64,000 nt of DNA, from the NCBI GenBank assembly GCA_951406725.2, contig OX597826.1:43090001-43154000 (forward strand). Reading direction: 5' to 3'. The position numbers and the translations under genes are program-made. Shown in pieces: positions 3,708 through 63,716 of this stretch. The notes under the pieces were generated by a model that saw nothing but the letters and a program-made list of their open reading frames with translations, was not told the DNA's origin and did not search any database. Position 1 is the stretch's first letter. Each line of letters opens with the position of its first letter. This DNA is from Octopus vulgaris (lineage: Eukaryota).

Positions 3708-4128
3708 GCAGAGCGTGATCGTTGCCAGAGCAACAAACTGGCTTCCATGCTGGTGGCATGTAAAAAGCACCATTCGAGCGTGATCGTTACCTGCATTGCC
3801 TTACTGGCACTTGTGCTGGTGGTACGTGAAAAAAAACATTTGACCGAGGTTGTTGCCAGTGCCGCTGGACTGGCTCCTGTGCAGGTGCCACATAAAAAGC
3901 ACCATTTGAGCATGGCTGTTGCCAGTACAGCCTGACTGGCTCTCGTACCGGTGGTATGTAAAAGCACCCACTACACTCTCTGAGTGGTTGGCATTAGGAA
4001 GGGCATCCAGCTGTAGAAACTTTGTCAGATCAGATTGGAGCCTGGTGCAGCCAACTGGTTAGCCAGTCTTCAGTCAAATCGTCCAACCCATGCTAGCATG
4101 GAAAGCGGACGTTAAATGATGACGATGA
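3708..4128 (+). mobile_element. Non-autonomous retroposon with tandem ~62-bp modules and (GAT)n tail (RTE-like 3' part)
   Basis: Four GCCAG..CTGGC / GGTG..TAAAAAG CACC-type modules, then gagtggttggcattaggaagggcatccagctgtag...ggacgttaaatgatgac. Copies at 41290-41590 (-), 57910-58398 (+) and 62539-62800 (+). Confidence 0.8.
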
Positions 4129-12224: not shown

Positions 12225-12508
12225 GGAAATTGAAAGAAGCTCATTTTGTGTGTGTGTGTGTGTGTGTACCCTTGTCTCGACATCATGTGATGATTGTAAA
12301 TGAGCATCACTGTCATGTAAATGATGTTGTTTGTTTCCAGTCTTCAGTGGGAAGCAAGTCTGGCCATGCAGAAATATTACCTTGCTTGGAAGCAGGTGAA
12401 GGCTGGTGACAGGAAGGATATCCGACCATAGAGAAAGTCTGCCTCAATAAATTCTGCCCGACCCATGCAAGAATAGGAAAGTGAACATTAATGACGATGA
12501 TGATGATG

Positions 12509-12549
<41 letters not shown>

Positions 12550-40728: not shown

Positions 40729-42919
40729 ATTACTATAGCCTGGACTGACTGATGTCTTGAGAGTGAATTTGGTGGATGGAAACTGCACTAAATTCCATTG
40801 TCCACACACACACACACACACACACACATGGAACAAGAATAAAAAAACATGGCAGGTTGAAAACAAAGAAACAGGGTACAGTAGGTTTACACTCAAGATA
40901 TGTTTTGGGTATACATTCTTTCTTCTACAGAAACAATAAAGTGAGACAAAATTGGAGACAGTGAAGGACAAACATGTCTCAAACAGACAGTCACTACATG
41001 TTGAAATGACCAGAAAAGGGTGCTACAGAGACCCTCTCAAAGTATTGGTTGGTCCAAGGCTATGGCAGAGGACACTTGTCCAAGGTGCAGTGCAATGGGA
41101 TTGAACTTGAGTGAATTCCATATCTGCAGAGCCATGCCCATACCCAACTTTTTTTTGGGGGGGGTAGCTGAAGGATAAGCAGGTGGGAGAGGATAATGAC
41201 CATTGCCTTTCAGCCCCTCCAAGACTTAGATACAGGTGTAACTAGAAGAGATTAGATTAATTTGAACACATATTGGTTAGTAATTAATCATCATCATTGT
41301 CGTCGTTTCGATGCTAGCATAGGTTGGACGGTTTGACTGTGGGCTGGCGAACCAGATGGCTGCACCAGGCTCCAGTCTTGATCTGGCAGAGTTTCTACAG
41401 CTGGATGCCCTTCCTAACGCCAACCATTCCGAGAGTGTAGTGGGTGCTTTTACGTACCACCGGCATGGGAGCCAGTCAGGTGGTACTGGCAAAGGCCTCG
41501 CTCAAATTTTTTTACACATGCCAACGGCACAGGTGCCAGTAAGGTGATGCTGGTAACGATCCCGCTCGAATGGTGCCTCCTACATGCCTACATACATGAA
41601 AAAAAAAATATTTGGCACAGATAAAATTCTGGGGGGATGCAACTCTATGGTGGGAAATAGAATTAGGTGAAACATTTAATTTGAACTCATTTGAGTAAAT
41701 GAGATAGAGTAAGGCTGACAGAAAAGAGTAGATGCACTGAATGCCTTTAGAGAAAGCAATATAAGGTAAACAGAGACCATTAAAGAATTAGTACAACAGA
41801 CAGTTTGAGGATGCAGACCAATGTTGAGTCAGCAGTTAGGAAGTATAAATAAGTTTTCTGTTTAATGGAGACACTGGTTCAGGTGTGTAAACAGTACTCT
41901 AGTGTAGGATAAAGTTTCATCTTGTATAAAAAAGTTAGTTGGTTTTCAGTGCCAAAATATTTTCTGATTTGGGGGAAATAAATTGAGACATTTTAATCCA
42001 GTCTTTGGTATGTGAAGAATGTGTAGCTGCCTTGAAAACTTTTCAAAATCTGTAATGCCAAGTGTTTAGAAAAGGTGAGGATTTTACCAACCATCCTAAG
42101 ACTTTTCTTGGTTCCATGATTTAAACTTCACGTTTTTTACCCTTTGGTTACTAAACTGTTGTTGAAATACACTAATATTGTTTAAAATAGTTTAGTAAAA
42201 TGGCTGCCATTATCAAGCTGGTGTTTGGGACATAGTTTAATATTAAATTTTGATAACTTTTAAACAGGAATTCATATTATAGGACCAAGGCACAGTTCCA
42301 GGAAGGATGGTATCAAAAATTTAAAGTGATCTAAATTAAAAGCTTTCATCATATAGGCGCAGGAGTGGCTGTGTAGTAAGTAGCTTGCTTACCAACCACA
42401 TGGTTCTGGGTTCAATCCCACTGCGTGGCACCTTGGGCAAGTGTCTTCAACTATAGCCTCGGGCCAACAAAAGCCTTGTGAGTGGATTTGGTGGACGGAA
42501 CTGAAAGAAGCCCATCATATAGCACCAGGTGGTGCTATTAAGTTAGACATGGCCTGGGCCAATAATGGCTGAAACCTATCAAAGTATCAAAGTATATATA
42601 TATATGTATGTGTGTGTGTGTGTGTTCACATCCCCCTAACTTAGCGGCTTGGCAAACGAGACCGATAGAATAAGTACCAGGCTTACAAAGAATAAGTACT
42701 GGGGTCAATTTGTTCGACTAAAGGCGGTGCTCCAGCATGTCCACAGTCAAATTACAAACAAATAAAAGAATAAAAGAATCTAAGTTTTGTGTAAATTTAT
42801 GTTCCAAAATACCAACTTCATAATGACAAAATTATTTTACAAAATTCATCAACCATTTTCAAAATTAATTGAAATAAAAGGAGTGTATTTTAGTAGAAAT
42901 ATGGTAAGTAATGGGTTAA

Positions 42920-56721: not shown

Positions 56722-57380
56722 GTGGCTACTTCAGTCTAGCAACATATTGATATGAATATGTTGGTTTAAGATTGAAGATGTAAAAGAATATCTATCTTCT
56801 CTTGAATTGAAATGATGAGAGCTAGAGGATATATACAGAAATATGTACACGTGTGCACACACGCACACACACACACTCTTATTTATGTGCATTGCTCAGT
56901 GGTTAGAGCATCAGGCTCACAATCACAAGGTAGTGAGTTCAATTCCCGGGCTGGGCTGTGTGTTGTGCTCTTGAGCAAGACACTTTATTTCTTGTTGCTT
57001 CAGTTTACTCAGCTGTAAGAAATGAGTTGCAATATCAATGGTGCCAAGCTGTATCAGCCTTTGCCTTTCCTTGGATAACATCGGTGGTGTGGAGAGGAGA
57101 GGCTGATATGTATGGGTGACTGCTGGTCTTCCATAAACAACCTTGCCTAGACCTGTGCCTTAGAGGGTAACTTTCTAGGTACAATCCCATGGTCATTCAT
57201 AACTGAAGGCTATATTTACCTTTTACCTTTATCCATACACACATGAGTGTGTGTGTGTTATATTTTTTAATTCTTGTACTTGTTTAAGTCATTATGTTGT
57301 AGCCAACCTGGGTTAGCATTTTCAAGTGAATTTTAATCCATCAAGCTGGTCAAATACTCATTTTAAAGTTTGGTACTTAC

Positions 57381-57430: not shown

Positions 57431-57561
57431 CTTGAATTGAAATGAATACATGTAAACACACACACACACACGTATATACATTACAAGCACACACACACAC
57501 GCGCATATCTTTATATTATATATATATAGACCAAAGTGTACATATGCTGCTATATATATCA

Positions 57562-58398
57562 AATCAAAATAGATGAACATCAATGGAATTTGTATCTTGT
57601 GGTACCAGTGCCAGTGGCACACAAGAAAACCATCCGAACGTGGCCGTAGCCAGTACCGCATCGACTGGCCTCCGTGCTGTGGGCACGCAACAAACACCAT
57701 CCGATTGTGGCCGTTCGCCAGCCTCATCTGGCACCTGTGTCGGTGGCACATAAAAACACCATCCGAAGACCCGGCAAGACTAGTCAGGCCATAACCCGTG
57801 GCCCCTACCTGGGACGTAGTCAGTCCACCTGTGCATACCTTCCTTCTTGTGACACTTGTGAAGACCTGTTGAGGCAAGTGAAAATCAAATCAAATCAAAT
57901 CAAAACAAATCAAAATAGATGAACATCAATGGAATTTGTATCTTTGTGGACCAGTGCCGGTGGCACACAAGAAAATCATCCGAACGTGGCCGTAGCCAGT
58001 ACCGCATAGACTGGCCTCCGTGCTTTGGGGACGTAACAAACACCATCCGATCGTGGCCGTCCGCCAGCCTCATCTGGCACCTGTGTCGGTGGCACATAAA
58101 AACACCATCCGAGCGTGGCCGTCTGCCAGCCTCGTCTGGCACCTGTGTCGGTGGCACATAAAAACACCATCCGAGCGTGGCCGTTCGCCAGCCTCGTCTG
58201 GCACCTGTGTCGGTGGCACATAAAATCACCCACTACACTCTCGGAGTGGTTGGCGTTAGGAAGGGCATCCAGCTGTAGAAACACTGCCAGATCTGACTGG
58301 CCTGGTGCAGCCTTCGGGCTCCCCAGACCCCAGTTGAACCGTCCAACCCATGCTAGCATGGAAAACGGACGCTAAATGATGATGATGATGATGATGAT
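57562..58398 (+). mobile_element. Dimeric retroposon with 62-bp internal tandem modules
   Basis: Two units share about 200 bp of 5' sequence. The first ends in (AAATC)n, the second in (GAT)n. ctgtgtcggt recurs at 58081, 58143 and 58205. Confidence 0.85.
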
Positions 58399-59272
58399 AT
58401 ATGTATAAAAATACAAAATGGAACAAGAACACAAAGCATCCAGACAGTTAGGTGATACAAGAAAGGGACATTAAAACATCCAGATAGACAATACAAAGCA
58501 AACAAGGACGGGTCATTTGGAGTTTTCTTTCCTCAGTCGAGTTCCAAATTATCTTTGCAATTTTGGCTGGTTATACTCAAGATTGCTCCAATCTGGCCAG
58601 CCCCAAGGAAAAACTAAGCTAAGAGCATTAGATTCCTTGGAAGAGAGCAGTGAATGTATACAAAAACAAGGATGGAAAAAAAAAGACGGAGTTGATTACA
58701 CAAATACAAATAACAGGACATAACAACAGGTGTCTTTCGACCAAGGACGAATTAAATTAAGCTGGCATGTGTGGAAGTAAAGCCTTATGGCAGGGATACA
58801 AGGTTTCAAAGGCACAGGGAAGAATATAGATGTTGCAGGGACAGCGGTTGAACCAAGAAATATATGTATATATACTATCTTCTTTTAACTTGTTTCAATC
58901 ATTGGACTACAACCAGGCTAAGGGATTGTCTTGAAGAATTTCATTGAACAAATCGGTTCCAGTACTTTTTTCTTCAAACCTGGTACTTATTCTGTCAGTT
59001 TTGTTGCCAAACTGCTAAAATGTGGAGACAGACAAAGTAAAACTAGTTGTCAAGTGGTGGTAGGGTACAAATACAACAGAAACACACACACACACACACA
59101 ATGGGCATCTTTAGTTTACTAAATCCATCCACAAGACTTTAGTAGGTCCATTGCTTTAGCAGAAGGCACTTACCCAAGGTGCCATGCAGTGGAACTCTGA
59201 ACCAAAGATCACATGGTTTGGGAAGCAAGCTTCTCAAAACCACAAAGCCAAGATTGTGCCTATATATGTGTG

Positions 59273-62540: not shown

Positions 62541-63716
62541 CACTTGTGCTGGTGTGCAGGTGACACGTAAAAAAAGAAGATTTTTTTTGTGGCCCTTGCC
62601 AGTACCACCTGACTGGCCCTCATGCTGGTGTGGCACGTAAAAGCACAAACTACACTCTCGGAGTGGTTGGCGTTAGGAAGGGCATCCAACTGTAGAAACT
62701 CTGCCAGATCAAGATTGGAGTCTGGTTTGCCAGTCCTCAGTCAAATCGTCCAACCCATGCTAGCATGGAAAGCAGACGTTAAACGATAACGATGATGATA
62801 TATATATATATATATATATTACTACACATGTAATATAAATGTGAATAAGTGCCTATATAATTGTGTATGCATATCTGCACACATATATATATTTGTTACA
62901 CACATATATACATATATACACTGTATGTGTTGTAGGGTAATCAATATAATTGAGTAATGAAGGGGTGTGATAGATTTATTAAAGTATTGTATTAAATATT
63001 TAGAGCATATTTAGCTTTCGCCCTTTATGCTTCCTGTTGAATCTCTGGCAGGGTCACTTCAAATTGCTGTTGTCAGGGGATACCAAAGAAAAAGGAACAA
63101 ACAAAAAAGAAAAAAAGAAAAAAAAAACTAGCAATCAATTGCACTATATACACCCATCAATCTACAGCTTTGTGTCAAAGTAATACATTAATATATTTCA
63201 GTATTGATTTATGATAAACAACTGTATGTGTGTGTGTGTGTATATATATATATTTTTTTTTTCTTTTATTTGTTTCAGTCATTTGACTGCAACCATGCTG
63301 GAGTGCTGCCTTTAGTCAAACAAATCAACCCCAGGACTTACTCTTTATAAGCCTAGTACTTATTCTATTGGTCTCTTTTGCCGAACTGCTAAGTTACGGG
63401 ATGTAAACACACCAACATCAGTTGTCAAGTGATGGCGGGGATGGAGACAAACACAGACACTCACAAATATATACATACACACATTATATTTTCAATCTCT
63501 CATACCAAAGAGGTCTTCAGTTGGTCGTATGCAACATAATTAGTTAGCTGTTAAATTAACAGAAATATTTCAATATGTACCAGTCTCCATATTTTTTGTA
63601 ATTGTTATGTAGTCACACACCTGAAAATATTCATAATCCAATGACATAAGTCAAATTTACCCATCAGAAGAATTAAAGTGGGATTGCTCACCCTAAACTA
63701 CCTTTGGTGTTCTTAC

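Follow-up and report, generated by a model that had tools for sequence, protein, structure and literature searches.

Tandem units at the locus

The window analysed here is a 64,000-nt stretch of Octopus vulgaris DNA (contig OX597826.1, positions 43,090,001 to 43,154,000 of the forward strand). Toward its right end lies a retroposon copy that contains tandem units of ~62 nt (Table 1). Eight of them fall between 57595 and 58232, four intact and four degenerate. An intact unit has a GCCAG/CTGGC hairpin with a variable loop, followed by a predicted compact H-type pseudoknot: stem S1 encloses a single base (L1) and the word GGTG, which would pair across an A-rich loop with CACC to form stem S2. A preliminary description of this DNA had placed such units here and at 3746 and 3944, and we find them in all these places. 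Its formula S1-N-GGTG-S1′-A-rich-CACC fits half of the eight units fully and the degenerate half imperfectly; the unit that it cited at 57674 as an example has the loop TGTGG instead of N-GGTG. It was right that unit number differs between copies, which ranges from 0 to 11 among 265 elements and reaches 14 and 19 in two long copies.

Table 1. Features of the LINE copy and of related copies in the window
Positions	Strand	Feature	Remarks
57558..58398	+	5′-truncated copy (3′ UTR only) of a young LINE classed here as RTE-type	AT-rich flanks; matches the 3′ end of L032 at 99.5% identity (842 nt)
57595..57631	+	Degenerate unit, reduced to the S1 core and a GGTG-like loop	Hairpin absent; AACC in place of CACC
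57632..57698	+	Unit with hairpin and S1 intact	Loop TGTGG; S2 as described not possible
57699..57760	+	Intact unit, hairpin and predicted pseudoknot
57761..57944	+	Spacer of the ~350-nt higher-order repeat	Opens with a copy of the last ORF codons and stop (57765); closes with (AAATC)n and an A/T-rich stretch
57945..57977	+	Degenerate unit	No hairpin or CACC
57978..58044	+	Unit with hairpin	G-G mismatch in S1; loop TTTGG
58045..58230	+	Three intact 62-nt units in tandem	Starts at 58045, 58107 and 58169
58231..58292	+	Terminal domain, made up of a hairpin, a bulged stem-loop (loop AGGGCA), TAGAAA and TGCC	May form a second type of pseudoknot
58337..58398	+	Stem-loop of the 3′ tail, then (ATG)n	Lacks poly(A); near-identical tail in L291, similar in L168
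3705..4128	+	Older-subfamily copy	Four units, same end
41287..41575	-	Older-subfamily copy
62579..62799	+	Older-subfamily copy

A scan of 57595–58400 for pairing alone returned four compact H-type pseudoknots on the + strand (mean 0.06 and maximum 1 in 300 shuffles) and none on the − strand. The unit at 57978 had decayed already in the source element, since most young copies share its form. Units of this kind are numerous: one exact unit pattern matches 29,950 times in the 2.8-Gb genome. The 600-kb sample that we drew on comes from one contig, chosen for its high unit density.

Other observations concern the surroundings and the tail. At 720–890 and 12400–12515 of the window lie much older copies, which have either a single unit or just a terminal-type domain with its tail. 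A separate repeat at 56885–57220, which we take to be tRNA-headed and SINE-like, lies 340 nt upstream of the LINE copy. In the 3′ flanks of 30 young copies (L001–L030), (AT)n follows in 13 and (ATT)n in two (compare 57550 and 58399 of the window); these raw counts may point to a preference for A/T microsatellites. The tail stem at 58339–58376 has a CG-started closing stem and then an A-rich run, like unit S1, and its letters differ in other taxa (L168, L172, L201).

A young LINE, RTE-type by architecture

All 40 scored hits to 58040–58380 were 100% identical, and the family is therefore young. Sequence shared by young copies extends far upstream, with staggered 5′ ends. In four of 14 extended copies (L032, L034, L038 and L039), an open reading frame at least about 1,000 aa long ends 1.9–2.4 kb before the end of the element; most of the others keep a truncated part of it. 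The longer copies thus combine a ~1,060-aa endonuclease-RT-PHD ORF with a 3′ UTR of 1.7–2.4 kb holding up to 19 units. L032 and L034 each have a single ORF of at least 300 aa. That of L032 matches Exo_endo_phos, RVT_1 and, weakly, PHD; relatives at 45–55% identity are common. Its PHD-like finger (residues 802–845) follows the RT domain and recurs in many relatives.

The window copy is a 5′-truncated LINE, since long copies carry the ORF and it is nearly identical to the 3′ end of one of them. A SINE, noncoding and with a tRNA, 5S or 7SL head, was considered and rejected: in long copies the shared sequence runs upstream into the LINE ORF. The preliminary description had correctly seen a retroposon; the carrier is the 3′ UTR of an autonomous LINE and not a free SINE-like element.

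The element has one ORF with an APE endonuclease followed by RT, (ATG)n microsatellite ends, and copies truncated at staggered 5′ positions. On this architecture, on its motifs and on the resemblance of its UTR to that of RTE-2_DPl in the available part of PMC5786205, we call it RTE-type. PDB matches of the RT were to L1 and R2 only. The element is one of the most abundant in this genome, mostly as short 3′ fragments, and the family is very likely already in repeat libraries under some name.

Three side features of long copies may be recorded. Just inside the ORF start of L032, a polypyrimidine run ending in CAG (2310–2332) resembles a 3′ splice site, with an in-frame ATG upstream of it. A near-perfect long inverted repeat in the flank (L032:471–594) is probably a MITE-like element. 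In several copies (L274–L284, among them L275, G000:C11:7318000-7322300) the 5′ region is made of tandem ~590-nt monomers (>4 kb upstream of the ORF).

The terminal domain

Downstream of the units comes a terminal domain whose pattern has at least 59,898 exact matches in this genome. Its GGAAGGGCATCC stem-loop and the A-rich run after it occur in the 5′ UTR of the related LINEs L165 and L286, about 230 nt and about 150 nt, respectively, before the ORF match. The domain is also found in worm bipartite elements, and it is kept in noncoding tRNA-headed and bipartite short elements of other animals (L288–L294). A zebrafish 3′ UTR repeat carries the same stem-loop (available text of PMC5147938). 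We did not find the domain in the 4.2 kb upstream of the ORF in any of 11 long copies. Given its place in the 5′ UTR of related LINEs and its absence from the element's own 5′ region, this lineage carries a 5′-UTR-type domain at its 3′ end. Capture of a bipartite element, of the RTE kind described in PMC5786205 (in the part available), is the likely route. The domain itself belongs to a known class of RTE 5′-UTR pieces.

Among 12 sequences the terminal-domain stem had one two-sided change (T-A versus C-G) with a score of 12/500, the slid control scoring higher, and four further measures on the same sequences were not above shuffles. The TGCC partner is missing in L165 and in the worm elements, which makes a terminal-domain pseudoknot uncertain.

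By eye, the 5′ UTR of L165 has a possible H-type pseudoknot (165–200) immediately upstream of its hairpin and terminal-type domain, an arrangement that matches the order in the window copy. Loci L286–L294 are animal-type LINE and SINE sequence in bacterial or archaeal MAG contigs, probably contamination.

Conservation of the stems and the covariation test

Stems vary much less than loops. We compared 23 unit types, from 26 clusters of 450 units (one had no hairpin match, one no S1 region and one a short leader), and found that 8 of 28 paired positions vary, against 26 of 29 unpaired ones (p 2.5e-6). Omitting the hairpin loop and leader, where indels inflate the counts, left 8 of 28 versus 7 of 10 (p 0.03). 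Unit types are related, so these p values overstate independence. The 322 stem cells of the 23 types comprise 307 Watson-Crick pairs, nine G-U pairs and six broken ones. Because the first unit set had been picked partly by stem letters, the test was repeated with units picked without them, in 46 of the 265 elements, selected solely on their terminal domain and leader: columns with ≥8% transversions numbered 0 of 28 paired versus 12 of 38 unpaired (p 0.002). A selected, multimerised structure, as first proposed, is thus borne out as far as conservation of stems against loops goes, but covariation is not its basis.

Two further patterns are compatible with the predicted pseudoknot, though linear motifs could look alike and the fit is not proof. 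The single L1 base occurs as each of the four letters, and CACC never changes. At the junction of S1 and S2, C stands in 11 of 22 readable last units of older families (23 of 45 were unreadable) and G in 131 of 136 young ones; with C, one S1 pair would be traded for a fifth S2 pair.

Covariation was claimed in the preliminary description, and this claim fails. The S1 changes that it cited are products of CpG decay: from CGTGC/GCACG, decay of the self-complementary CG step gives either TGTGC/GCACA or CATGC/GCATG. Across 771 aligned units the two sides of S1 are unlinked (odds ratios 1.32 and 1.54, p 0.12 each), and unrelated CpG pairs in the same alignment reach odds ratios of 1.0–2.5. When the 2016 column pairs were ranked on corrected mutual information, all 14 proposed pairs fell outside the top 100. 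The outer S1 pair was linked only in the 153 least-decayed units (C-G versus T-A, odds ratio 4.7, p 8e-5), which is one subfamily-level difference. With 22 of 26 representatives, the covariation score was 0.094 versus 0.102 in shuffles, 437 of 500 shuffles scoring as high, and one of 14 pairs had a two-sided change; 94.5% of pairing cells could pair, versus 24–50% when slid. RNAalifold recovered both hairpin and S1 (covariation term −0.11); it preferred a sixth S1 pair that competes with S2. Single units folded no better than shuffles (z −0.86 to +1.08) under a nested-only model, which excludes pseudoknots, and rival folds were offered.

As covariation is not significant, a constraint on sequence is inseparable here from one on structure. 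The conserved words could then be DNA-level or linear protein-binding motifs, such as an internal promoter or factor sites, with pairing incidental. Invariance without covariation would suit such motifs, as would the derivation of the terminal domain from a LINE 5′ UTR, where promoters lie, and its absence from the element's own 5′ region. Yet the conserved positions form three complementary word pairs, their changes mostly preserve pairing, and an H-type knot of this kind was formed by just 9 of 2000 shuffles of one unit. We consider incidental pairing very unlikely.

Architecture and history of the array

The 3′ UTR is built of a ~350-nt higher-order repeat that begins within the ORF's final codons and contains two or three units each time. 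After these repeats come a run of intact units, the terminal domain, the tail stem-loop and (ATG)n.

The ORF C-terminus was present upstream in 36 of the 223 elements sampled; excluding ten with an intervening element left 26, which were compared over short alignments. Five elements at 41–51% protein identity have 66–194 nt and no more than one unit before the terminal domain, those at 58–81% have one to four units (one has 12), and those at 86–98% have four to 11. Outside this trend fall an element at 33% whose four repeats are short, a decayed young copy at 42% that has six, and, at 52%, two elements, probably unrelated neighbours, whose gaps measure 1.4–1.6 kb. The array has grown: old members of the lineage mostly have one unit or none, and young ones have 4–19. 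Different sublineages expanded different unit sequences. Exact tandem copies, the duplicated ORF end and S1 deletions between direct repeats suggest growth by RT slippage.

We found no unit homologue outside this genome with either an HMM or a covariance model in 88 relatives' loci (208 kb), nor any in viral contigs. Relatives in metagenomes have short 3′ UTRs that lack the unit; in 79 metagenome loci, a generic scan for pseudoknots produced 13 matches versus six in shuffles, none of them unit-like. Since these relatives retrotranspose even though their 3′ UTRs are short and hold no unit at all, the units are not generally required.

Only the last unit, or none, might matter, the array being a neutral by-product of RT slippage and the apparent conservation of its stems a result of repeated duplication of one constrained unit. 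The low unit number of old members is in keeping with this. So is the higher-order repeat, which also copies plainly non-structural ORF-end and (AAATC)n sequence, and so are the decayed ORF-proximal units. Slippage itself has left a trace in six units, versus 78 intact, that lost the S1 region between 6-nt direct repeats. Against neutrality, internal unit types have diverged widely in loops and leader with their stems kept (taken alone, they vary at 5 of 28 paired versus 25 of 29 unpaired positions), and one older subfamily retains four distinct units, three of them fully intact. We regard a neutral array as unlikely.

Possible roles of the units

The reading that we prefer, tentatively and at somewhat under an even chance, is that the units are binding handles for the LINE's own endonuclease-reverse transcriptase. 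The unit RNA would fold as drawn, into the hairpin and compact pseudoknot. The element protein would bind the pseudoknots of its own RNA next to the tail stem, where reverse transcription would start, in the way that a 3′ pseudoknot-hinge-stem is bound by A-clade R2 proteins. Additional copies of the unit would raise avidity, so that the LINE's RNA would be favoured over the numerous short elements with the same tail. Arrays would expand and contract by RT slippage between direct repeats, with tail-proximal units staying intact and ORF-proximal ones decaying. Consistent with handles are the ORF with its APE, RT and PHD domains, which precedes the array in L032, L034, L038 and L039, the lower variability of the stems and the retention of the terminal domain in noncoding short elements. 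The R2 3′ UTR pseudoknot is bound by its element protein and needed for insertion (available part of PMC12180492). Against handles, covariation is not significant, nested-only folding does not favour the drawn fold, RNAalifold prefers a competing sixth S1 pair, relatives do without any unit, and half of the units in the window copy are degenerate.

The knots might instead stabilise the RNA or help to translate it. An RNA with no encoded poly(A) that ends in (ATG)n could use a barrier to 3′-to-5′ decay or a translation enhancer, and tandem pseudoknots in tobamovirus 3′ UTRs offer an analogy. The 3′ UTR position, the restriction of knots to the sense strand and the conserved stems all agree with such a role. 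But relatives with the same kind of end do without units, and the neighbouring terminal domain is kept in noncoding short elements; for the latter reason a role in mobilisation fits better than one in translation. We regard a stability or translation role as unlikely, to the same degree as a neutral array.

The preliminary description also named a ribozyme and an exonuclease block as candidates. Each unit would then be a self-cleaving ribozyme or an Xrn1 block that yields short 3′ RNAs, as the many short 3′ fragments might invite one to think. HDV-like ribozymes can occur at the 5′ end of RTE elements (PMC5786205, in the part available). The 5′ ends of 94 truncated copies, however, are distributed uniformly along the unit (chi-square p 0.85, KS p 0.57). 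These 94 are from 161 elements; the rest end in spacer or ORF or are unassigned (62), end in the terminal domain (two) or are out of range (three). An Xrn1 block would leave a fixed 5′ end upstream of the fold, and the cDNA truncation points, which are ends of DNA copies and not of RNA, are uniform. Long copies with the ORF and 14–19 units were, moreover, inserted whole. There was no hammerhead CUGANGA core on either strand of 57558–58400, and an HDV-like descriptor, run without a positive control, had no match. Rfam gave no match in the window at gathering score and none at E<=10 in 57540–58400; in L275, L032 and L165 it gave only four miRNA-type chance hits in flanks. Cleavage or exonuclease blocking by the units is thus disfavoured, and we hold it to be extremely unlikely. 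Among the functions that the preliminary description put forward, RT recruitment is the best candidate left. The statement that the structure matches no named RNA family agrees with the Rfam searches.

Comparison with known systems

A parallel in layout to the proposed handles is the 3′ UTR of A-clade R2 (PMC12180492, available part). R2 too is a non-LTR element, and at the 3′ end of its RNA a pseudoknot lies directly 5′ of the terminal stem. Its single knot was established through mutation and cryo-EM, and zinc finger 3 binds it. The LINE described here is APE-type and has its predicted knots in a tandem array.

Within octopus, RTE-2_OV (PMC9115989, available part) is an RTE LINE with one EN-RT ORF of similar size. 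Its UTRs are reported to be about 600 nt long, and a microsatellite is described as directly following its ORF.

The Deu, Nin-DC, Inv and Snail cores of SINEs (available parts of PMC5786205, PMC4758252 and PMC5804259) have a similar layout by eye: a CG-started stem of 4–5 bp, a loop, the stem partner, TTAAA, and 3–4 bases complementary to the loop. EbuSINE2, SINE2-2_CM, HaSE1/3 and the Snail cores show it, in the few sequences that are printed, and EbuSINE2 and SINE2-2_CM differ by what appears by eye to be a two-sided change in the second stem. For the Deu/Nin-DC core the resemblance, judged by eye from printed sequences, covers about 15–20 nt of 70–120 nt. These SINEs differ in being headed by tRNA or 5S, in their longer loops and in lacking the GCCAG/CTGGC hairpin.

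In the literature searched, we found neither a description of the array nor one of a pseudoknot in RTE UTRs or Deu/Nin cores; PMC5786205, in its available part, proposes none for RTE elements. The conserved RTE UTR domains and SINE bodies are there said to have an unknown function (available parts of PMC5786205 and PMC5804259). RTE UTRs are also being optimised for RNA-based gene writing (PMC13708176, available part). Should the units be slippage products only, they would amount to an ordinary repeat-annotation detail of a very abundant element.

Close in architecture are RTE LINEs, bipartite RTE elements and RTE-derived SINEs such as HaSE1/HaSE3 and EbuSINE2, which share the order of body, 5′-UTR piece, 3′ tail and microsatellite (PMC5786205, available part). 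The same source reports duplicated 5′-UTR domains in AviRTE. In the octopus LINE, by contrast, the bipartite end stands behind an intact ORF as a 3′ UTR and has expanded in tandem to 19 units. One could speculate that the RTE 5′-UTR domains and the ‘functionless’ Deu/Nin/Inv cores share a working unit, namely a compact pseudoknot (stem, short loop, stem, TAAA-type loop, second stem). It would here have been moved to the 3′ end and multiplied up to 19-fold as an RT avidity tag that outcompetes tail-sharing SINEs. So broad a generalisation is decidedly unlikely. The natural series, from one to 19 copies of a 62-nt unit, amounts to a direct dose test.
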